From Minisyncoccota bacterium (GTDB lineage Bacteria; Patescibacteriota; Minisyncoccia; Phycocordibacterales; PALSA-1337): DNA of 64,000 nucleotides. The stretch is taken from assembly GCA_028713005.1 (NCBI GenBank), contig JAQTPC010000004.1, positions 2,745 through 66,744 on the forward strand. Direction: 5' to 3'. The notes beneath the pieces are model-generated. The model had not been told where the DNA came from. It was given only the letters and a program-made list of their open reading frames with translations, and searched no databases. Positions within the stretch are counted from its first letter, which is position 1; each line of letters begins with the position of its first letter. Shown here piece after piece: positions 2,637 to 22,861 of this stretch. Position numbers and translations under genes: made by a program.

Positions 2637-3269
2637 TTACACCGTAATAAAGAGGTCTTTCTTTGCACGACGAACCTTTTTGTACGATGCAGAGGCATCA
2701 TTTGTTGTATCACGATATCCAAGTGCCAATAAAACAACACTCTTTAATCCTTTTTCTTTGAGACCGAGAACCTCATCAAGTTTTGCAGGTTCAAATCCTT
2801 CCATAGGTGTTGAATCGACCTCTTCAGCTGCAGCGGCTACGAGACCTGTACCGAGAGCAATGTACGCTTGTTTTGATGCCCAGTTTATCTTCCCCGCAGC
2901 ATCCAAACTATTTACAGTACCCATAATGTATTGTTTGAATCCATCAAGTGCTTTGACATCCATGCCACGAGTATCAGCGACAAGCTTCATATAGTCATCG
3001 ACATTCTTTTCGGTGATATTGTCCCATGCTGCAAAGACGAGAAGATGTGAACTCTCTACTATCTGTGGCTGCATCCACGCAGTTGCCTGGATCTTTTTAC
3101 GAACTTCTGGATCAGTAATGACAAATACGTTATACGGAGTAAGACCATACGACGATGGAGCGAGACGGATTGCTTCCAAGATAGCATCGATCTTTTCTTG
3201 AGGAATACTTTGTCCATTCATTCTCTTTGTTGCATAACGCCATTCGAGCAGTTCTGTAAGTGTACTCAT
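2637..3269 (-). CDS. Nitroreductase-family NAD(P)H oxidoreductase
   Basis: N-terminal W-RYATKR motif, P-SSYGLTP and the overall length are typical of nitroreductase-fold proteins. Confidence 0.75.
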   Translation of the reverse strand: MSTLTELLEWRYATKRMNGQSIPQEKIDAILEAIRLAPSSYGLTPYNVFVITDPEVRKKIQATAWMQPQIVESSHLLVFAAWDNITEKNVDDYMKLVADTRGMDVKALDGFKQYIMGTVNSLDAAGKINWASKQAYIALGTGLVAAAAEEVDSTPMEGFEPAKLDEVLGLKEKGLKSVVLLALGYRDTTNDASASYKKVRRAKKDLFITV

Positions 3270-3403
3270 GTGTTTAAGTAAGTTTAATTATTTTGTTAAT
3301 TTGCTTAATATTTCTTAACGCTTTTTTAAGCTAGTCCACATATCTTACGCGCATTGCTTTACTTTGTAAAGTACTTTACATAGTACAGCACGCATGATAG
3401 CCT

Positions 3404-3742
3404 ATGTCTATGGCAACTACGTTATCTGCACGTAAAACTACTGCTTCATATATCCACTCAAAAAACACCTGCCCTGTCGCAGAAGTGGCTGAGCTTTTGT
3501 CAGATACGTGGACAATGCTCATCATCAGAGATTTACTCAATGCTCCAATGCGTTTTTGCGAACTTGAACGATCGCTCGAAGGCGTCAGCACGCGCACACT
3601 CACCCTCAAGCTCAAAAAACTGGTAACAGAAAAAATCATTTCAAAAGACGAAGAGTCTCACTTCTATTCCATAACTAAACAAGGTACACATCTTGGTGCA
3701 ATTGTTGATGCGATGAGAAATTACGGAAAAGAGTACCTGTAA
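3404..3742 (+). CDS. HxlR-family winged-helix transcriptional regulator
   Basis: CPVAEVAELLSDTWTMLIIRDLL...RFCELERSL matches the HxlR consensus. Divergently paired with a nitroreductase, a classic arrangement. Confidence 0.75.
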   Translation: MSMATTLSARKTTASYIHSKNTCPVAEVAELLSDTWTMLIIRDLLNAPMRFCELERSLEGVSTRTLTLKLKKLVTEKIISKDEESHFYSITKQGTHLGAIVDAMRNYGKEYL

Positions 3743-3744
3743 AC

Positions 3745-3778
3745 AAAAACCGCAAGGTTGAACCTTGCGGTTTTTTGA
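3745..3778. terminator. Bidirectional rho-independent terminator hairpin
   Basis: AAAACCGCAAGG-TTGAA-CCTTGCGGTTTT flanked by A/T runs, between convergent genes. Confidence 0.5.
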
Positions 3779-3787
3779 TTTTCTTTT

Positions 3788-4096
3788 TTACTGGGCAGGT
3801 GTGTGTGGATGATCGCCGTGATGAGTATGGCTCGTGCGCTTTTTGTGCCACTCTTTCACAAAGAAAACGATATATACTGCTTCGAGTAGACCCATCGTAT
3901 TCAAAAGAAGTATAGCGATGAACCACCACTTTTGATCGCGCTTTGCTGCTGTCCACAATGCATAACCCTTGAGAGCAATCAAAGCCATAAAAGCTACAGC
4001 GAGCAGTAAACTAAAAAATAGTGCTGGACCTTGTCCAAAGCCGTAAAACCACGGTGCACCCCACATATGACCATACGAAATTGATGAATTCATCAT
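3788..4096 (-). CDS. Small membrane protein (2-3 TM), His-rich C-terminus
   Basis: ORF with hydrophobic segments (FFSLLLAVAFMALIAL, WWFIAILLLNTMGLL). No recognisable family. Confidence 0.4.
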   Translation of the reverse strand: MMNSSISYGHMWGAPWFYGFGQGPALFFSLLLAVAFMALIALKGYALWTAAKRDQKWWFIAILLLNTMGLLEAVYIVFFVKEWHKKRTSHTHHGDHPHTPAQ

Positions 4097-4197
4097 AAAT
4101 ATAGAGATTAGCTAATATGCCTCTATTCTAGCATAGTTAAATGAGCAATAATCTGTTGTATAATAGTACGTATTAGCACCTAATTACATTCAAAATT

Positions 4198-4617
4198 ATG
4201 TTACCTATTAACTATGTAGCAGTCCTCGTCGCAGCAATTGTGGCCTTTATCATTGGTTTTCTCATGCATGGACCGGTTGCTGGCAAACTCTGGATGAAGC
4301 TTGCAAACATTCATCCTACGGGAAATGAAAAGTTCAAAGACATGATCCCTCAGATGCTCTGGAACTTGCTTGCAAACATTGTCACCGCATACGTTTTGGC
4401 AGTCGTCTATTTATTTGCATCTACCTCCCCTGTCATGGGTGGAGCGGGCGCTTGGAACGGTGTTGTCTGTGCATTCTGGGTATGGATCGGTTTTCTCGTT
4501 ACCAGTAGTTCTATCGAGGTCATCTGGATGGGACGTAGTGTCAAACTCTGGCTCTTTGAATGTGTCAGCTCACTCCTTGTCATGAGTGCTATGGGAGCAA
4601 TCATTGCAGCCTGGTAA
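4198..4617 (+). CDS. DUF1761-like integral membrane protein
   Basis: MLPINYVAVLVAAIVAFIIGFLMHGPVAGKLWM N-terminus resembles the DUF1761 family. Four predicted TM segments. Confidence 0.5.
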   Translation: MLPINYVAVLVAAIVAFIIGFLMHGPVAGKLWMKLANIHPTGNEKFKDMIPQMLWNLLANIVTAYVLAVVYLFASTSPVMGGAGAWNGVVCAFWVWIGFLVTSSSIEVIWMGRSVKLWLFECVSSLLVMSAMGAIIAAW

Positions 4618-4627
4618 TAGGTCGAAA

Positions 4628-5239
4628 TTATAGAGATTTAATACCAACACCTTTGTACATAAATCCCAAGGGCTTTGGACCTTGAGAGAATTTTTCTAGA
4701 TTCTGTATTTTAAAACCAGCATCACGGATAAGATGCTCAATATCTCTATTCAGATGACATCCGCCTGCGATACATTTTGAAATTGGAGTAAGTAAGTTTT
4801 GTATTCTCCAAATGAAAGTCTTTGGTGATTTTCCATGCTCAATGAAACAGAATTTTCCCCCAGGCTTCAGAACCCGGAACACTTCCTTAAGTGCGAGATC
4901 TGGGTGAGGAATAGTACACAATGTCCATGTTGAGACAACAAAATCAAGACTATTCTCAGGTAACGGAATATGTTCTGCTGAACCCAGAATCTGTTCTATA
5001 GGAAATGTAACAGCCTGAAGATTTTTATGTGCCATTTCATATAACTCTTTTGATGGATCAAGACCGTATAGTCTGGTGATACTTTTATAGTAAGGTAGAT
5101 TGAGCCCCGATCCAAAACCTATTTCAAGCCCAATACCAGACAACCCAGAAACAACATCGATTCTGTGTCGTTTAAAATCCTTACTCTGCATGACACAGTT
5201 AAGGTATATGGGTAAGATATATTTCTGATAAAGACTCAT
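4628..5239 (-). CDS. Class I SAM-dependent methyltransferase
   Basis: SAM-binding motif I GLEIGFGSG, motif post-I GLDPS, and LKPGGKFCFIEHG (Methyltransf_11-like). Confidence 0.75.
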   Translation of the reverse strand: MSLYQKYILPIYLNCVMQSKDFKRHRIDVVSGLSGIGLEIGFGSGLNLPYYKSITRLYGLDPSKELYEMAHKNLQAVTFPIEQILGSAEHIPLPENSLDFVVSTWTLCTIPHPDLALKEVFRVLKPGGKFCFIEHGKSPKTFIWRIQNLLTPISKCIAGGCHLNRDIEHLIRDAGFKIQNLEKFSQGPKPLGFMYKGVGIKSL

Positions 5240-5278
5240 GTTTAAATATATAAATCGTCTCCTGGATGCAGTACCTAG

Positions 5279-5365
5279 CGGAGAGAGTGGGATTCGAACC
5301 CACGGTTCCCGTAAGGGAACGGCGGTTTAGTAAACCGCTGCCTTAAACCACTCAGCCATCTCTCC
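5279..5365 (-). tRNA. Type-II (long variable arm) Ser-like tRNA; anticodon loop UUACUAA gives apparent anticodon ACU
   Basis: Reverse complement folds as acceptor GGAGAGA/TCTCTCC, D-arm, anticodon stem GCGGT/ACCGC, 18-nt variable arm, T-arm GTGGG-TTCGAAT-CCCAC and discriminator G. It aligns with E. coli tRNA-Ser. A34 is unusual. Confidence 0.6.
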
Positions 5366-5464
5366 AATCCTTTTATGGATGAAAATAGGTTAACACGAAT
5401 ATATTCTTTTGCAAAAAAAGTTTATTTTGATAAAAGCGTATTTTTATGCCAGAATGGCACGATT

Positions 5465-5551
5465 GGAACCGTGGTGGAGTGGTCTAACATACCTCTTTGC
5501 TAAAGAGGCAGGCCTTAACGGGCCTCGAGGGTTCGAATCCCTCCGGTTCCG
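5465..5551 (+). tRNA. tRNA-Ser (anticodon GCU)
   Basis: Acceptor GGAACCG/CGGTTCC, anticodon stem CCTCT/AGAGG with loop TTGCTAA, long variable arm, T-arm GAGGG-TTCGAAT-CCCTC, discriminator G. Confidence 0.8.
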
Positions 5552-5603
5552 CACACAATTTCTCGCTGAACCAAAAATCCTGTACATATCGTATAATACT
5601 CAT

Positions 5604-7304: not shown

Positions 7305-7391
7305 CTAACGTATAAATTGGTTATTGATCATTGTTCATTGGTTATTTACGTCAACTATTCATTTTACATTTTTCACTGTAAACTTTACCTT

Positions 7392-9665
7392 ATGCCCGTC
7401 ATCACTCCCGAAATCACCGTATCTGAATATTTCCGCCTAACGCCCATACAAAAAGACGCCTTGAAAAAAATAGGTGTCATCACCCTTCGCGACCTCTTGT
7501 ATCATTTTCCCACTCGTTATGGTGATACCGCTGAAGCAAAAAATATTGAGACACTCAACAAAGGCGACACTGCTGTTATATTTGGAAGAATTACCAATCT
7601 CAAAGCAAGCAAAGGTTTCAAAACCAAGATGACTATGGCGACAGCAACAGTCGAAGACGAAACCGGCAAGATCCAGTGTGTCTGGTTCAACCAGCCGTAC
7701 CTCGCCAAGATGACACCTGAGGGAGCAATGGTTCGTATCGAAGGAAAAATTTCTCAGCGAAGAAATAAAAAAGAAACTTTAGACGTAACTTCAGGCAAGC
7801 TCGTCAAAGAAGAAACTGGTGTGCTCTACTTCTCCAACCCAAAAATCGAAGTCGTCGACAAGCTTCCTATCGGCGTTGGTGACTCCCTCTTTGGCGATGA
7901 TGGCGAAGCTCATACCCTCTACCCCGTATATCCCGAATCTCGCGGCATTACTTCAAGCTGGATGTACCATGCTATCCAAAAGCTCTTCAAGAGCGGCCTT
8001 ATCGACAATATGATCGACGTGCTCCCCGAACATCTCCTCGTCAAATATCATTTGCCGAGCCTCAAGACCGCACTCATCTGGATGCATACTCCACTCAAAC
8101 GCGAAGATGCGCTCTCGGCTCGCAAACGTTTTTCTTTTGAAGAAATATTCATTATCCAACTCGGCAAGCAACAAGCACGACGTGAATATGAAAAGCATCC
8201 TGCATTCGTCATAGAACCCGACGATGCCCATGTCCGCGAATTCATCAAACGTTTTCCTTTCACTGCCACTGAAGCACAAACCAGAGCGATTGAAATGATC
8301 CTGAGTGATATGCGTCGAGAATATGCCATGTCGCGCCTCCTCGAGGGTGACGTGGGTTCAGGTAAAACAGCTGTAGCCGCTTCTGCTGCATATGCCATCA
8401 TCACTTCACGTCCACCCAAAGTTCCACGTCTCGCTGGTTCAAATCCCAATCCTCTTGCAAAAGGTTTTGTTACAGCTGGGCAAGGAAATCTCCAAGTGGC
8501 ATATATGTGCCCAACTGAAATCCTCGCCACACAGCATTTCGAATCATTCATCCAATATTTTTCATACATGCCGATACAAATCGGCCTCATCACTGGTTCT
8601 GGTTGCCGTAAATTCCCTTCAAAGATAAATCCAAAAGGCTGGACTGACATATCTCGCGCTCAACTCCTCAAATGGGTCGAGAGTGGGGACATCCATGTTC
8701 TCATTGGTACCCATGCACTCATCCAAAAGTCAGTGAAGTTCAAGAACCTCGGCCTAGCCATCATCGATGAACAGCACCGTTTCGGTACTGCACAACGCGC
8801 CAAGCTCATTCGCAAAGACACTATCGCTCCACATCTCCTTTCAATGACCGCTACGCCAATACCACGCACGCTCGCTCTCACCATGTATGGTGACCTCGAC
8901 CTTACTCTCCTCGACCAATCCCCTGTCGGTCGCAAACAGATCATTACTGAACTCGTATTACCTAACGGTCGCGATGCAGTCTATGAAAAGATGCGCACTG
9001 AACTCCAATCCGGCAGGCAAGGTTATGTCATTTGTCCTCGCATCGACGAACCAGATCCTGACAAAGAACAAGCTCTCAATGCAAAGTCTGTTAAAGAAGA
9101 AGCCAAGCGTCTCCAGGCAAAAATATTCCCTGAATATGAGGTGGGTATCATGCACAGCAAAATGTCACCTCAAGAAAAAGATCGCGTCATGGGTCAGTTC
9201 AAGCGTGGTGAGGTCACCATACTCTGTGCTACCTCAGTAGTCGAAGTTGGCGTGAACGTACCCAATGCTACCGTCATCCTCATCGAAGGTGCTGAACGCT
9301 TTGGCCTCTCTCAACTCCATCAGTTGCGTGGTCGCGTCATGCGCAGTAGCCATCAGGCACACTGTTATGTCTTTACTGAAACCACATCAGAAAAATCAAT
9401 CGCTCGCCTCAAAGCTCTGCAAAATACCAAAAATGGTTTTGAACTTGCCGAACTCGACCTCATGGCTCGTGGTGCCGGCGAACTCTCTGGCATGCGTCAG
9501 TGGGGTGTTTCTGACATAGCAATGGAAGCTCTTAAAAATCTCAAGATGGTTGAAGCTGCTCGCGAAGAAGCAGGACGACTCATCATCGAAGATATCACTC
9601 TATCGAAATATCCTGAGCTCAAAAAAGAAGTGGCTTCGAAAAAGATTGAGACGCATTTTGAGTAA
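7392..9665 (+). CDS. recG: ATP-dependent DNA helicase RecG
   Basis: N-terminal wedge domain (LTPIQKDALKKIGVITLRDLLYHFPTRY), Walker A GDVGSGKT, DEQHRFG, and the full helicase C-terminus. A ~25-aa insert follows Walker A. The start is taken at an internal Met of the long ORF. Confidence 0.85.
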   Translation: MPVITPEITVSEYFRLTPIQKDALKKIGVITLRDLLYHFPTRYGDTAEAKNIETLNKGDTAVIFGRITNLKASKGFKTKMTMATATVEDETGKIQCVWFNQPYLAKMTPEGAMVRIEGKISQRRNKKETLDVTSGKLVKEETGVLYFSNPKIEVVDKLPIGVGDSLFGDDGEAHTLYPVYPESRGITSSWMYHAIQKLFKSGLIDNMIDVLPEHLLVKYHLPSLKTALIWMHTPLKREDALSARKRFSFEEIFIIQLGKQQARREYEKHPAFVIEPDDAHVREFIKRFPFTATEAQTRAIEMILSDMRREYAMSRLLEGDVGSGKTAVAASAAYAIITSRPPKVPRLAGSNPNPLAKGFVTAGQGNLQVAYMCPTEILATQHFESFIQYFSYMPIQIGLITGSGCRKFPSKINPKGWTDISRAQLLKWVESGDIHVLIGTHALIQKSVKFKNLGLAIIDEQHRFGTAQRAKLIRKDTIAPHLLSMTATPIPRTLALTMYGDLDLTLLDQSPVGRKQIITELVLPNGRDAVYEKMRTELQSGRQGYVICPRIDEPDPDKEQALNAKSVKEEAKRLQAKIFPEYEVGIMHSKMSPQEKDRVMGQFKRGEVTILCATSVVEVGVNVPNATVILIEGAERFGLSQLHQLRGRVMRSSHQAHCYVFTETTSEKSIARLKALQNTKNGFELAELDLMARGAGELSGMRQWGVSDIAMEALKNLKMVEAAREEAGRLIIEDITLSKYPELKKEVASKKIETHFE

Positions 9666-9750
9666 TGATTGACAGCATTTTCTGATTTATGTATTGTAAA
9701 TTCAGAGATACAGTAAACGAAACAAACCAATACAGAAAGGAATATCCTTT

Positions 9751-10167
9751 ATGAACACGCTTCCGTCCTTTGATAAAGCTCGGGGATCAATCAAGATCCA
9801 GCTCTTGGTCTTCATGCCCATCCTGATCCTCATCGCTGTCATGCAGACGATATGGTCACCTGCGGAAACAGATGACCCCATCGCACCAACGATACCCGGC
9901 GCGGCCCCCGCAAACCAGCTCGGAGCTTCTTTTCCAAATCAACTGATCGTGCTCGAATCTACAAATAAGAGCCAGCCCCGGACTGCTTATCTGTGGAATA
10001 GCGACCTCCAGATTTTGACCCTCGTCAGCCCGCAGAACAAAATTCCTGACGGTGAGGCACTGCATGCGGTTCAAACCTACAGGTATACCCGCACGAACTA
10101 TCCTCGGGCTGAATACACACTCATCCCGCGTATCAAACCGACGAACGCAGCACCAATCACACCCTAA
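9751..10167 (+). CDS. Hypothetical protein with N-terminal TM/signal; GC-rich relative to surroundings
   Basis: ORF only. Its composition differs from the flanking genes. Confidence 0.3.
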   Translation: MNTLPSFDKARGSIKIQLLVFMPILILIAVMQTIWSPAETDDPIAPTIPGAAPANQLGASFPNQLIVLESTNKSQPRTAYLWNSDLQILTLVSPQNKIPDGEALHAVQTYRYTRTNYPRAEYTLIPRIKPTNAAPITP

Positions 10168-10338
10168 GTTCAGCATCAAAAACTCCACTGAAACAATCGT
10201 TTCTTTGGGGTTTTATTTTTAAATAATAAAGTTTCGAAGGTCTTGACATATATCAAAAAGAGAGTAGCTTTTATATCTGGAGGTTCATCGGCGCACGGTG
10301 CGCAGAGAAACCAAAAAACATTGAAATAGGAGTAGCAC

Positions 10339-11010
10339 ATGAAAAACAGAAAATCCCGACCCGCCGGCACAAATCCCAACTATCGTTTGGGAAGAACCAA
10401 CGGGCACCACATGCAAATCCCCCGTTTGGATTTCCCGCGGATCAAGCTCGGCTCGAACAAATACTGGCCAGCAATCAGTCGCCGGATTCGTTCGCGAATC
10501 AAATCAATCAAGAATAGCACGCAGCGCTCATTGGCTGAGCAAGGTCGCAAAAATGCTGACCTCGTCGTGTCGAAATTGAACCGGGCAAACGTAAACCTGC
10601 TCCATCTCATCGGCCACACAAATGGCTTCATGATGAATATTGAGCGTTACACCGAACACCATTTCGAAAAACTGTGCAGCAAGAAGGAGTTGCAGCACAT
10701 TTCAGTTCGAAATGCTGACGTGCATACCGTGTTTGTCATCGAACGTTTTGGCGACATTCAAACATCAGGCACCATTTGCATCTCACTCATGGACATGCAA
10801 ATCGTGCTCACTCGACAAGAATGGTCTGACCGATTCCAAACGATGTATCACCGATTGCTCACAGCCGGTGAGCTGCGTTTCATTGATCAACCTTCCATTC
10901 TGGAAAAGCTCGACAAACTCAGGACCCCAAATATGATCTTTATGGAACTGCAGATACGAATCACGATTCAAGAAATCGAACGTCGCGAACGTGAAATCTG
11001 CTCAACTTAA
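10339..11010 (+). CDS. Hypothetical protein (orphan), GC-rich segment
   Basis: ORF only. A TTGACA-containing promoter-like sequence and a GCGCAC-G-GTGCGC palindrome lie upstream. Confidence 0.3.
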   Translation: MKNRKSRPAGTNPNYRLGRTNGHHMQIPRLDFPRIKLGSNKYWPAISRRIRSRIKSIKNSTQRSLAEQGRKNADLVVSKLNRANVNLLHLIGHTNGFMMNIERYTEHHFEKLCSKKELQHISVRNADVHTVFVIERFGDIQTSGTICISLMDMQIVLTRQEWSDRFQTMYHRLLTAGELRFIDQPSILEKLDKLRTPNMIFMELQIRITIQEIERREREICST

Positions 11011-11164
11011 TTATCTGTCTATCAACCCAACGCACGTGCGTTGGGTTTTTATTTTTACACGCAAGCCAATAATACATCTATTTGTCCGCCCTCCTGGATT
11101 CGTGTCTCCATCGACACGCTCCACTGAGCGCCAATGACCCCAGAGGGCTTTTAGTGATTGATTG

Positions 11165-11238
11165 TCCGCCCTCTTGGATTCGAACCAAGGACCCCAGAGG
11201 TATAAGCTCTGTGCTCTAACCAACTGAGCTAAGGGCGG
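11165..11238 (-). tRNA. tRNA-Ile-like with anticodon UAU (loop CUUAUAC)
   Basis: Reverse complement CCGCCCT-TA-GCTC-AGTTGGTTA-GAGC-A-CAGAG-CTTATAC-CTCTG-GGGTC-CTTGG-TTCGAAT-CCAAG-AGGGCGG-A forms a canonical cloverleaf. Confidence 0.7.
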
Positions 11239-11378
11239 ATTTGCCTCAGCTGTTTAACTAACCAAAACAGCTAAGGGCGGTGTTGGTTCAATCATCATAA
11301 TGTAAACCGACCAGAGAAACAACTGTAAAATATAGAAAGAAAAGAGCCCTAGAAAATCCAGAGCTCTTCGTGGAATAA

Positions 11379-11762
11379 CTATACTGAAATGAGCGGCGCA
11401 CGCAAAGAATTTTCTGGTGGCTCGAAAAGCTTCTGCGGACGAAGACACTCGACTAATTCTTGTCTAACTGCCAAAATCTTTCCTGAAAGACCGCTCGATT
11501 GCAGTGATGCTACAAAAACGAGGAGGGTAAACTCGTTCGGCAACTCCAAGACTTTTCCGGCTTTAATAAAATCTTTTTCAGACTGCGACCGAAAGCCAGT
11601 AACATCTTTAGCTACTGAACATAACGGATGGAATACCGAAACATCTTCACATACCAGCTCAATCTTGGAGCACAGATGCAACTCTCCTGAGGGCATCAAT
11701 CTACATTCCCAGCGATACTTAACCATGTCTCGGCAACAAGTAAAGAAATATGGAATTCTCAT
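11379..11762 (-). CDS. Hypothetical protein (weak call)
   Basis: ORFs overlap on both strands here. The minus-strand ORF has the more protein-like composition. No homology recognised. Confidence 0.2.
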   Translation of the reverse strand: MRIPYFFTCCRDMVKYRWECRLMPSGELHLCSKIELVCEDVSVFHPLCSVAKDVTGFRSQSEKDFIKAGKVLELPNEFTLLVFVASLQSSGLSGKILAVRQELVECLRPQKLFEPPENSLRAPLISV

Positions 11763-11863: not shown

Positions 11864-13786
11864 TTAGACAACCTTTGCTTCCCTTTTGAGCGGGATACCC
11901 TGCGCAACGATGATTTTTTCATATTCTTCACGCTCGATTGTCTCTGTCTCAATGAGGCGCTTTGAAACTGCTTCAAAAGCCTTTTTGTGCTCTGCGAGCG
12001 TCGCAATCGCACGTTCACGAGCTTCAGTCATAATCTTTGAAACTTCACTATCGATCTCACTAGCAACTTTCTCTGAATATTCACGCTCAGCAACACCCAT
12101 TCCAAACATGACACGGCCTTGGGCACTCTCGAGAGCGATTGGGCCGATCTTATCTGACATGCCATACCGAGTGACCATATCGCGCGCGAGAGCAGTTGAG
12201 ACTTGGAGATCGTTCGATGCACCAGTAGTGATATCACCGAAGACCATTTTCTCTGCAACATATCCACCGAGTGACATAGCAATATCATCAAGGAACTCAT
12301 TGCGAGACTGGAGCTTACGTTCTTCAAAAGGCAATTTCAATGTATACCCTGCAGCACGACCACGAGAGATAATAGATATCTTGTGCACAGGATCAGCATG
12401 CGGAAGTACCGATGCGACGATAGCGTGACCAGCTTCGTGATATGCAGTAATCTCTTTTTCCTTTGGTGAGAGAACGTGACTCTTGCGCTCAGGACCGAGC
12501 ATAACTTTTTCGATAGAGCGGATGAGATCGAACTGACCGATCGTCTTTCTCTCTTCACGAGCAGCGAGGATAGCTGCTTCATTCATGAGACTAGCGAGAT
12601 CAGCACCAGAGAATCCTGGTGTACGTTCAGCGACTACTTTGAGATTGAAGTCCTCTGCAAACTGCTTTTTCTTTGAGTGCACGGTGAGGATAGCCTCGCG
12701 ATCAGCACGATCAGGAAGATCAATGGTTACGCGGCGATCAAAACGGCCTGGACGGAGGAGCGCAGGGTCAAGCACATCAGGACGATTTGTTGCAGCCATA
12801 ACTATGACTTTTTGATTCTGTTCAAAGCCGTCCATCTCGACGAGGATCTGGTTCAATGTCTGTTCACGCTCATCGTTGCCACCACCCGTACCTGAGCCAC
12901 GTGCACGACCGACAGCGTCGATCTCATCGACAAATACAATAGCTGGAGCCGCTTGCTTTGCCATATGGAAGAGGTCGCGGACGCGAGAAGCACCAACACC
13001 GACGAACATCTCGACGAACTCTGAGCCAGAGATAGAGAAGAATGCCACTCCCGCCTCACCTGCCACTGCACGAGCAAGAAGTGTCTTACCTGTACCCGGT
13101 GCGCCCATGAGGAGCACGCCCTTTGGAATCTCTGCACCGATATCGATGAACTTTTTTGGATTTTTGAGGAAGTCGACGATCTCTGAGAGCTCTTGTTTTG
13201 CTTCTTTTGCACCAGCAACATCCTTGAATGTTACCTTCTGCTTTGTATCATCTGGGAGCGTGATACGCGCCTTTGACTGACCAAACGACATCGCTTGCAT
13301 ACCTGCGCCACGCATCTGACGAGAGAGCATCCAGATAAAGAGTGCGAGGAAAAGGAGAGGAATTATAAATGGTGCGAGCTGTCCTACCCAATACCAGAAG
13401 CCAGATGGCGAGATAACACTGATAGTTGTAGAACCGAGGTCGGCAGAAGTTACACCAAAACGACTCAAACTGTCAGTGAGAGAGGCGTCGGTCTCACGCT
13501 GGGTTGTTTTGACTGTCTTGTCTTTGTACTGTGCGACAACTTCAGTGTCCTGGATGGTGAGTGAAGTAACCAAACCTTTCTTTATATCCTGCGCGAGTGA
13601 AGAAAGTGGTACTGATGTGCCTGTTGTTGATTTGCCGGAAAACTCCGCATAAAGCGTCGTAATGATCAAAAATATGATAATGACTGTAGCGATTGAATTT
13701 AAGAAATTCATCTTTGGGAAACCCTTTCCCTTCTTGCCTTGAGGCGCATTTTGGCTGTTTTTCGGTGTATTATTTTGGGGATTCAT
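11864..13786 (-). CDS. ftsH: ATP-dependent zinc metalloprotease FtsH
   Basis: Walker [19 protein letters not shown] zinc motif, and N-terminal TM segments. Confidence 0.9.
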
Positions 13787-14512: not shown

Positions 14513-14635
14513 GTGTGGTTATAATGTTCATAGTTTTTTGATGTAAATGTATCTAACTCCAAAATATAAATTACCACATGGAATGGTTATAGTCAATAAA
14601 AGAAAACACCGACTAAAGCCGGCTTTTTTAATGTG

Positions 14636-14999
14636 TGGAGATGGGCGGAATTGAACCGCCGTGCAATCGAAGTTCGTCGAGCGACTCTACGGTGATAGAA
14701 TCCTTTGAAGTTTAATGACTATGCTAACAAAGAAAACAAAGCACATAGTCACGATCTCATTGTTTCAGGAGATAGAGTGAGAAGCTCTATCTACCCTACA
14801 TCCAAGTTATTACGCCTTGCTTACTGTTAGGATCCCAGTGAGTAGACGGCCTCGTTAGACGAGAGCGAATTGAAAGTCTTTGACTCCAAAAAATGGAGAA
14901 ACAATAGATTTTGCAATTGGGTTTTCCAGCGGATTTACGAGTCACTGGTGCTCGCACCGCACGAACGAAAACTGTCGATTGTCGATGCCTTGCATCCCC
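14636..14999 (-). ncRNA. ssrA: tmRNA (SsrA)
   Basis: 5' GGGGATGCAAGGCATCGACAATCGACAG and 3' ...GGCGG-TTCAATT-CCGCC-CATCTCC-A. The acceptor stem GGGGAUG/CAUCUCC carries the G3:U70 alanine identity pair. It lies adjacent to smpB. The candidate tag frame GCA AAA ... GCU CUC GUC UAA runs from RNA nt 86. Confidence 0.8.
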
Positions 15000-15098: not shown

Positions 15099-15539
15099 TC
15101 AACGATCCTTCATAGCCCTACCCATTTCCCTATCATCCTCACGTTTCTTTGTCGTCTCTCTCTTATCATACTTCTTTTTTCCTTTGACGACAGCGACCGT
15201 GACCTTGATAAGGTTGTTTTTAAGATACATTGAAATCGGCACTACTGTCAATCCCTTACTGACATCTGCAATTTGAGCGATCTCTTTCTTTCTCATGATC
15301 AAGCGGCGGTGACGACGAGGCTCATAGTCTTTAGGTGTATTTTTCTCCTGATATGGAGAAATGAGCATGCCCTGAATGAATGCTTCACCACCCTTTACCA
15401 ACACATATGCTCCATCGAGCGAACCACGCTTTGCTCTAAGCGACTTTACTTCAAAACCGAGTAGCTCGATACCTGCCTCGTATTTCTCGAGGATCTCGTA
15501 TTCAAAATGGGCTTTGCGATAATCAATCAAAACTGCCAT
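15099..15539 (-). CDS. smpB: SsrA-binding protein SmpB
   Basis: YEAGIELLGFEVKSLRAKRGSLDGAYV...ISPY...RRHRRLIMRKKEI matches the SmpB consensus. Confidence 0.85.
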   Translation of the reverse strand: MAVLIDYRKAHFEYEILEKYEAGIELLGFEVKSLRAKRGSLDGAYVLVKGGEAFIQGMLISPYQEKNTPKDYEPRRHRRLIMRKKEIAQIADVSKGLTVVPISMYLKNNLIKVTVAVVKGKKKYDKRETTKKREDDREMGRAMKDR

Positions 15540-22625: not shown

Positions 22626-22861
22626 ATGTATTAAATTAATTAGCCACAGTATAGCAGATGAGCTTCATTTACCTAAATCATACTCATTGACTGAAAAACT
22701 ACCCGTAGTGTATGCTTACGGTACAACAAAATAGTTATTCAGAGTGTGGCGAGAGAACTAGCTCAATGACCCACCAGCAACTCTTCGAAAGAAGTAAGTG
22801 CTCAATCTAGCCCGAAAGGGAAAGATGCTATATCTCGTATTAAAACGATATAAGAATAGTA

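Follow-up and report, generated by a model that had tools for sequence, protein, structure and literature searches.

The tRNA-Ile locus between recG and ftsH

Between recG and ftsH in an uncultured member of the Paceibacteria (Patescibacteria, or candidate phyla radiation, CPR) lies a tRNA-Ile(UAU) gene that is flanked on both sides by truncated copies of itself and, on its 3' side, by a 1.4-kb segment with two small open reading frames, ORF1 and ORF2. The region belongs to a stretch of 64,000 nucleotides of contig JAQTPC010000004.1 (assembly GCA_028713005.1), hereafter the window, and an original prediction made from the letters alone had taken it for the scar of a mobile element with residual cargo. 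We compared it with related loci, numbered L001 onwards; RecG retrieved 52 of these, of which 36 carry a tRNA-Ile(UAU) gene near recG, mostly tail to tail with it as in the window. The RecG relatives come from metagenome-assembled genomes (MAGs) of the Paceibacterota/Taylorbacteria type, and NCBI lists the exact ORF1 sequence among the hypothetical proteins of a 'Candidatus Pacebacteria' MAG. Read in the sense of the tRNA, the order is a pseudo 5' part, the intact gene, a spacer of 16 nt and a pseudo 3' half (Table 1); a tmRNA gene and an smpB-like ORF follow beyond ftsH.

The tRNA gene itself is real. ARAGORN calls a tRNA-Ile with anticodon TAT and Rfam agrees (RF00005, 69.4 bits against a threshold of 29), as the original prediction had it. 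The CCA end is not encoded. With a canonical cloverleaf and the anticodon UAU, this is presumably the resident AUA-decoding tRNA-Ile(UAU) gene. It is 100% identical over 74-79 aligned nt in L002, L003, L008, L011 and L015, and identity is complete also across genomes whose RecG proteins are merely 66-85% identical. The anticodon had been thought uncommon; ARAGORN finds it in 36 of the 37 scanned relatives with a tRNA-Ile gene near recG, so that UAU is the norm of the clade and no peculiarity of this locus. A comparable tRNA-Ile2 with an unmodified UAU anticodon has been described in Mycoplasma mobile, which lacks tilS (PMC3575796). Both are bacterial isoleucine tRNAs that presumably read AUA; in the present case UAU is a trait of the whole clade. 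The locus also documents UAU as the standard AUA-decoding anticodon of this clade.

A putative promoter of the tRNA gene was read by eye and is not reported by the promoter scan: TTGTTT (11322-11317) and TATGAT (11299-11294), 17 nt apart, with both boxes kept in L031 and L055. On the opposite strand, antisense to the tRNA, the Rfam model 'Plastid-ycf2 5'UTR' matches 11164-11238(+) below threshold (38 bits), probably not as a real feature but as an artefact, the model overlapping a plastid trnI gene.

Two truncated copies of the tRNA gene

The downstream copy had been described as a near-exact repeat 80 bp away from the true 3' end, and the repeat finder bears this out, with 20 of 21 nt shared between 11082-11102 and 11162-11182. 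A second colinear piece had been missed: 11131-11146 matches 11185-11200 at 15 of 16 positions. The first piece (part B) comprises the 3' side of the T-loop, the 3' strands of T-stem and acceptor stem and 2-3 nt of trailer, the second (part A) the 3' strand of the anticodon stem, the variable loop and the 5' strand of the T-stem (about tRNA positions 38-53). Together they make up a pseudo 3' half, approximately positions 38-76, in which 28 nt replace 2 nt of the T-loop. This filler contains two small hairpins (fold of 11100-11135: -12.5 kcal/mol, z = -2.1); its inner part, beside part A, is common to L054, and the remainder is missing in L054 and L055. Part B lies within an indel of 60 nt (about 11060-11119, flanked by ACACGC) whose sequence these two relatives lack. 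Part A has stayed at the same place in all three, at 15 of 16 positions in the window, 14 in L055 and 12 in L054, and the edges of the deletion around part B differ between L054 and L055. Since part A is more decayed in L054 and L055 and the deletion edges differ, the 3' relic predates the splits of these species and drifts like a pseudogene.

The upstream copy, predicted at 11268-11280, is real and longer than claimed. A 12-mer (11269-11280) is exact, and the whole match spans 23 nt (11258-11280, 20 of 23 identical) at a start-to-start spacing of 42 bp. It corresponds to tRNA positions 1-23, except that the D-loop reads GTT in place of CAG; the 19 nt that follow bear a weak likeness to positions 24-36. 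In L031 exactly the 42-bp block is missing and the promoter-side flank then aligns directly with that of the window. From TATGAT to the start of the pseudo-half there are 13 nt in the window, and from TATGAT to the tRNA itself 15 nt in L031; by this similar distance the 5' relic sits at the ancestral start of the tRNA and should be the leader at the 5' end of the precursor. Hence it is probably transcribed; the predicted leader would measure about 45-50 nt and carry a 12-bp hairpin, and RNase P would cleave it off.

The hairpin in the 42-bp block (arms 11244-11255 and 11265-11276) folds at -17 kcal/mol (z = -4.6). Three of the ten lineages with the 5' copy have hairpins of this kind (the window, L055 and L007), with folding energies from -14 to -23 kcal/mol and z scores from -4.5 to -7.1. 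Two compensatory double substitutions among them lend the hairpin weak support: the covariation comes from three sequences, and 54 of 500 shuffles reach an equal score. The acceptor-like part of the element decays in L055 and L007. Over 114 nt the window and L007 are 94% identical, with RecG just 67% identical.

The ten lineages sharing the 5' pseudo-half, CCGCCCTTAGCTGTTTTGGYTAR, are the window, L055, L007, L017, L045, L039 and L056-L059, four separate loci from metagenomes (L060 duplicates L058), and include distant Paceibacteria; sister loci L031, L040 and L047 are without it. In all ten the 23-mer with the CAG-to-GTT change lies 12-31 nt upstream of tRNA-Ile(UAU) and abuts the promoter-proximal leader, with differing spacers. 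The same change next to differing spacers suggests that the element arose once and was then patchily retained or spread. In L056, L057 and L058 the fragment and the tRNA are preceded by similar stretches of 4-7 nt; in the window this likeness is weak. The 5' copy is distributed independently of the ORF segment: L017 has it with a recG-tRNA gap of 14 bp, and L045 and L039 have it together with unrelated slot genes.

Neither copy is a chance resemblance, because on both strands of the 64 kb they are the sole tRNA matches of at least 14 nt with at most one mismatch, and the 5' copy is the sole 23-nt match with at most three. All pieces keep the orientation and order of the tRNA. The pseudo-halves receive no tRNA call from ARAGORN, nor from Rfam at E <= 10. 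A nested or split tRNA assembled from the outer halves was also considered and ruled out: the outer D-arm and anticodon stem have changed, the 28-nt filler interrupts the T-loop, the halves are distributed differently in relatives, and neither program makes a call.

Table 1. Features of the recG-ftsH region and further elements of the window, with their positions
Feature	Position	Strand	Basis or remark
recG	7317-9665	+	Pfam RecG_wedge, DEAD, Helicase_C; conserved left border of variable slot
ORF1 unit	9669-10222	+	promoter-like site, ORF1 9751-10167, hairpin and T-run
ORF2 unit	10243-11057	+	promoter, conserved leader, ORF2 10339-11010, terminator
Near-consensus slot promoters	window 9669-9697, 10243-10270; L043 12224-12252; L047 ~12307-12335
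3' pseudo-half part B	11082-11102	-	20/21 against tRNA 11162-11182
Filler inside pseudo T-loop, 28 nt	11103-11130	-	read from sequence
3' pseudo-half part A	11131-11146	-	15/16 against tRNA 11185-11200
Intact tRNA-Ile(UAU)	11164-11238	-	ARAGORN and Rfam RF00005
42-bp block with 5' pseudo-half 11258-11280	11239-11280	-	repeat finder (repeats D1, I3); missing from L031
Predicted tRNA promoter	11294-11322	-	read by eye
ORF127	11379-11762	-	no family match; right side of slot, conserved
ftsH	11864-13786	-	Pfam Peptidase_M41, AAA; right side of slot, conserved
tRNA-Ser	5278-5365	-	divergent pair
tRNA-Ser	5465-5552	+	divergent pair
tmRNA	14635-14999	-	Rfam, 105 bits
smpB-like ORF	15099-15539	-	by eye, beside tmRNA
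SAM-I riboswitch aptamer	22732-22830	+	Rfam RF00162

A variable slot of small genes

The segment between recG and the tRNA gene holds two units that are each predicted to be transcribed independently and appear to evolve fast. ORF1 (138 aa, with a hydrophobic N-terminal segment) follows a promoter-like TTGACA-17-TATTGT found by the promoter scan; a terminator-like hairpin with a T-run, read by eye, comes after it at about 10185-10220. ORF2 (223 aa) stands behind a TTGACA-16-TAGCTT promoter, likewise read by eye, and before a terminator (11024-11047 plus T-run, terminator scan); its promoter and leader are kept in L054, L055 and L047. The arrangement recG-ORF1-ORF2-tRNA-ORF127-ftsH recurs colinearly in L055 (RecG 91-96% identical at the amino acid level), with about 84.5% nucleotide identity throughout. 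Between these two loci ORF1 is 70-71% identical at the amino acid level (dN/dS 0.25), ORF2 94% (dN/dS 0.09) and ORF127 93% (dN/dS 0.035), and the ORF2 ortholog of L054 is 64-66% identical. Given this colinearity, the low dN/dS and a predicted promoter and terminator for each, ORF1 and ORF2 are real, maintained resident genes and not residual cargo.

The statement that these ORFs have no recognisable homologs holds for Pfam, PHROGs, NCBIfam and PADLOC, none of which yields a family match, and fails for the sister genomes with their orthologs at the same locus. Among 1.8 billion representative proteins, a profile search with ORF2 gave six weak relatives only, and tblastn with it gave no match among 50,697 phage and 72,556 plasmid records. 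Its AlphaFold model (pLDDT 80) has no fold match in the PDB at E <= 0.001. In L047 (RecG 75% identical) a distant homolog, 28% identical in a pairwise alignment of 117 aa (E = 8e-6), stands directly after recG and shares the promoter and leader of ORF2.

Small genes that are mutually unrelated occupy the slot in different genomes, each behind a near-consensus promoter (TTGACA, 16-17 nt, TAnnnT); in L043, for example, a different small gene stands behind a similar promoter. The ORF2-type genes share a leader, AAAAGAGAGTAG ... TGGAGGT followed by a hairpin. A remote ORF2 relative, P0006, is located between rplB and rpsS in the ribosomal-protein operon of another CPR genome (L062, 2904-3491; also L063 and L064), next to a histidine kinase on the opposite strand that is part of the same insert.

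Both ORFs had also been called GC-richer than the genome. This applies clearly to ORF1, with a GC content of 0.530 against 0.433 for the window (top 0.5% of same-size windows). It applies less clearly to ORF2 (0.476, top 8.5%), which recG (0.474) and ftsH (0.482) equal; the whole segment 9666-11163 reaches 0.468 (top 9.5%). At third codon positions (GC3) both ORFs are raised, ORF1 to 0.60 and ORF2 to 0.57, compared with 0.458 for recG, 0.448 for ftsH and a gene mean of 0.40 (standard deviation 0.07).

Across the 36 relatives the recG stop and the tRNA lie between 4 bp and 5.7 kb apart. A comparison with relatives, proposed along with the original prediction, shows the segment present in L055 and, as recG-ORF2-tRNA without ORF1, in L054. 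In L031 (RecG 95% aa) and L002 (91-96%) the site is empty: the recG stop is followed after 6-7 nt by the 3' end of the tRNA, and there are no ORFs. L031 is without both the 42-bp block on the 5' side and a 1,489-bp block on the 3' side, its flanks being otherwise alignable; for this empty form the status of the 5' copy comes from L031 alone, the upstream tRNA flank of L002 being unassembled. In the RecG neighbour-joining tree L054 falls outside the group of (L055, L002), the window and L031. Given this placement, either the segment is ancestral to the group and at least two losses occurred, or homologous recombination in the conserved recG and tRNA flanks moved it between close lineages; dS, mostly saturated (about 1 or more), does not separate gain from loss. 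The locus is supported as a hot spot of insertion, deletion and recombination 3' of a tRNA gene, and this much of the original prediction stands. The 7-bp 'tgattga' (9666-9672 and 11155-11161) was weighed as a target-site duplication of the 1,489-bp insert and ruled out, since the same junctions occur in L054 and L055, where the repeat is missing, and its first copy in the window lies in the TTGACA box of the ORF1 promoter.

Other slot contents include type IV pilin-like paralogs (L011, L015, L019, L044), a Cyt-b5/fn3 protein, an HD hydrolase, a 6-phosphogluconolactonase-like protein and an NYN-domain protein. A Pfam scan of the larger slot genes of relatives found no recombinase. L018 carries at 2711-5488 a VirD4/TraG-like type IV coupling ATPase with 925 aa, the sole mobile-element-like slot gene in any relative.

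Partial tRNA copies in relatives

Partial copies of tRNA-Ile recur around the gene in many lineages, and analogous structures were found in about 15 other genomes. The tRNA-Ser genes, taken as a control, have a few same-strand partial copies in their flanks too, a comparison confounded by the adjacent paralogous tRNA-Ser; as these genes show a few as well, partial copies are maybe not specific to tRNA-Ile. In L019 and L009 a tRNA with a different acceptor stem (GGGCGTG) stands beside a 3' half of the CCGCCC type, and that of L019 is identical to the window tRNA at 40 of 40 positions. Tandem arrays of tRNA-Ile(UAU) 3' halves lie downstream of the intact gene in L025 (13380-13657, units of about 82 nt) and L019 (4980-5330), directly upstream of type IV pilin-like genes. 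Each half in these arrays starts at the anticodon, from T34 to T36, and the halves represent different functional alleles with compensated T-stems, so that serial allele replacement does take place at the tRNA-Ile gene. A conserved promoter-like trailer of about 40 nt (TTGCAC ... TATATG) follows each half in L025 and the first displaced half in L019; it does not accompany the 3' half of the window. No inverted-repeat core of the tyrosine-recombinase type is present to the left of the array junctions in L025 and L019.

Just upstream of the tRNA of L012 (12681-12753), a decayed tandem pseudo-tRNA-Ile occupies about 12755-12830. It consists of the acceptor 5' strand, the D-arm and an anticodon loop CTTATAA, directly followed by the acceptor 3' strand, the T-arm being deleted.

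Probable origin of the partial tRNA copies

On balance, we lean towards explaining the copies as relics beside a variable slot, left when the tRNA gene was partially duplicated or its allele replaced, and the 1.4 kb as that small-gene slot rather than the body of an island. As a class the feature is not new: it is a fresh instance of pseudo-tRNA relics beside a variable tRNA-proximal slot. The two look-alikes would be non-functional leftovers of an earlier partial duplication or of recombinational replacement of the tRNA, the downstream one a 3' half from the anticodon loop on that has already been broken by the filler. The slot genes are common to sister species and absent from other close relatives. 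Same orientation and order as the parent gene, adjacency, the failure of tRNA finders to call them and decay in relatives are the marks of such relics, and all are seen here. Pseudo-tRNA fragments left by tandem duplication in a birth-and-death process resemble them in orientation, colinear order, adjacency and decay in relatives, and also in the few leader nucleotides apparently duplicated with the 5' part in several relatives. They differ in that the fragments of L019, L009 and L025 derive from another functional allele, for which foreign replacement is needed.

Recombination without a dedicated integrase is the likely route, since the tRNA was sometimes replaced and not just duplicated and the array junctions have no inverted-repeat core to their left. 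Candidate mechanisms are partial tandem duplication, unequal or slipped pairing, or a one-sided homologous capture of incoming DNA from relatives, which would be anchored in the extremely conserved tRNA. Homology-facilitated illegitimate recombination is known from natural transformation. With a conserved tRNA as anchor and a junction at microhomology, it would similarly give a new allele next to a displaced piece of the old one; at this locus the parallel is pure inference. A bolder version, which we put forward as doubtful, is that the tRNA-Ile(UAU) of Paceibacteria has been overwritten repeatedly by incoming alleles without an integrase, leaving stacked halves, and that the widely shared 5' pseudo-half was recruited as a structured precursor leader. 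Joins would then fall in the anticodon loop on the 3' side and at about positions 23-36 on the 5' side, with several layers in the arrays of L025 and L019 and a single one in the window.

Several observations weigh against reading the copies as relics of duplication or replacement. The 5' pseudo-half keeps 19-23 of its 23 nt in nine of ten lineages (L007 is more diverged) next to diverged spacers. This is more conservation than a neutral relic that old should show and hints at a function or at horizontal spread. The 3' halves begin in the anticodon loop, at C38 in the window and at T34-T36 in L019 and L025. By the rules on sublocation within tRNA genes, the anticodon loop is reportedly the classic crossover site of tyrosine integrases. 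With the 3' halves starting there, an ancient integrase event at the tRNA may have taken place. In the comparison of the window with L055, dS reaches 0.69 in ORF1 and 0.48 in ORF2 as opposed to about 1.0 in recG and ORF127, and GC3 of the two ORFs is raised; the segment could have been exchanged between lineages after their split. Finally, promoters, leader and processing are predictions, and from sequence alone the possible recombination routes look the same.

That the 1.4-kb segment is residual cargo of an integrative element in the 3' half of the tRNA gene, with the copies as att scars, seems unlikely to us. It would agree with the empty site in L031 and L002, the hypervariability of the slot across the clade, the start of the 3' half in the anticodon loop, the high GC of ORF1 and high GC3 of both ORFs, their orphan status, the coupling ATPase in the L018 slot and the insertion of P0006 into a ribosomal-protein operon. 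An element integrated at a tRNA gene, however, has the displaced 3' segment of the tRNA at the far end of the insert, and integration produces no 5' tRNA copy. Here the 3' copy lies between the ORFs and the tRNA, only 16 nt from the gene, which leaves the ORF segment unbracketed by tRNA repeats and makes the island-scar model fit poorly. At the recG end there is no tRNA-like sequence; matches within 9600-11075 are at chance level and inside ORF2 (best 12/14, 10916-10929).

Nor did an enzyme turn up. The integrase remnant that the original prediction suggested looking for was not found in any frame: at E <= 0.1, Pfam detects no recombinase in ORF1, ORF2, ORF127 or nine alternative-frame ORFs over 9702-11223. 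PHROGs, NCBIfam, PADLOC and the phage and plasmid records contain no phage, plasmid or defence match, and a search for attP with the 3' 30-mer of the tRNA gave no exact match in IMG/VR. The arrays of L025 and L019 without inverted-repeat cores, the colinearity and purifying selection of the segment in L055 and the ORF2-type gene with the same leader after recG in distant L047 speak against cargo as well. In short, the analysis does not support the specific proposal of a scar with residual cargo.

The comparison with known integration hot spots shows likeness and difference. Genomic islands and prophages with tyrosine integrases use tRNA genes as hot spots, with att repeats of tRNA 3' segments; the Asn tDNA hot spots of Klebsiella are an example (PMC4891358). 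The present locus is alike in its variable DNA 3' of the tRNA, the empty site in relatives, a displaced 3' half from the anticodon loop on, orphan genes and a somewhat deviant composition; it differs in the missing integrase, the unbracketed segment, the 16-nt gap, the extra 5' copy, and a segment that is colinear and under selection in a sister species.

Quite unlikely, in our judgement, is that the tRNA-like flanks are functional, the 5' hairpin leader controlling transcription, RNase P processing or stability and the 3' half acting as a structured trailer. Retention of the 23-nt element in ten lineages beside diverged spacers, the stable hairpin of the window, L055 and L007 with its two compensatory double changes, and the 94% identity of window and L007 over 114 nt at 67% for RecG would fit such a role, as would the fold of the 67-nt 3' element (-29.9 kcal/mol, z = -3.0). 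Against it stand the patchy occurrence, with sisters differing (L031/window, L040/L039, L047/L017), the restriction of the strong hairpin to three of ten lineages and a covariation signal from three sequences that shuffles match at the rate given above. The acceptor-like part also decays in L055 and L007, the 3' element is mostly deleted in L054 and L055, and no Rfam family matches. An assembly artefact by collapsed strain variants or chimeric joins is extremely improbable: the window stems from a MAG and tRNA genes are common assembly break points, but the independent Logan contig L001, from another read set, is 100% identical over 9600-11191, L055 and L054 from different samples have the same architecture at species-level divergence, and the analogous structures occur in some 15 other genomes.

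The main lesson of the locus is one of caution: orphan genes with partial tRNA repeats beside them mimic the scar of an island, and comparison with about 50 related genomes here reveals a variable slot with resident, selected genes and no recombinase. It further illustrates that in CPR bacteria layered partial copies of one tRNA gene recur, some of them from a foreign allele. Such copies could serve the study of DNA exchange around conserved anchors in small, possibly DNA-scavenging bacteria.

Other features of the window

The window contains a divergent pair of tRNA-Ser genes that are identical at 57 of 88 positions, one with the expected anticodon GCU and the other with ACU. To our knowledge, bacterial tRNAs other than tRNA-Arg very rarely have A34. 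The tRNA-Ser(ACU) gene recurs in 16 related loci, and in L002 and L003 the pair as a whole lies inverted between its flanks. Beyond ftsH, the tmRNA encodes the tag peptide AKSIVSPFFGVKDFQFALV, which ends in ALV instead of the common ALAA, with similar tags in relatives. The ORF beside it looks smpB-like by eye. Further downstream, the SAM-I riboswitch aptamer scores 50.6 bits against a threshold of 44.4.

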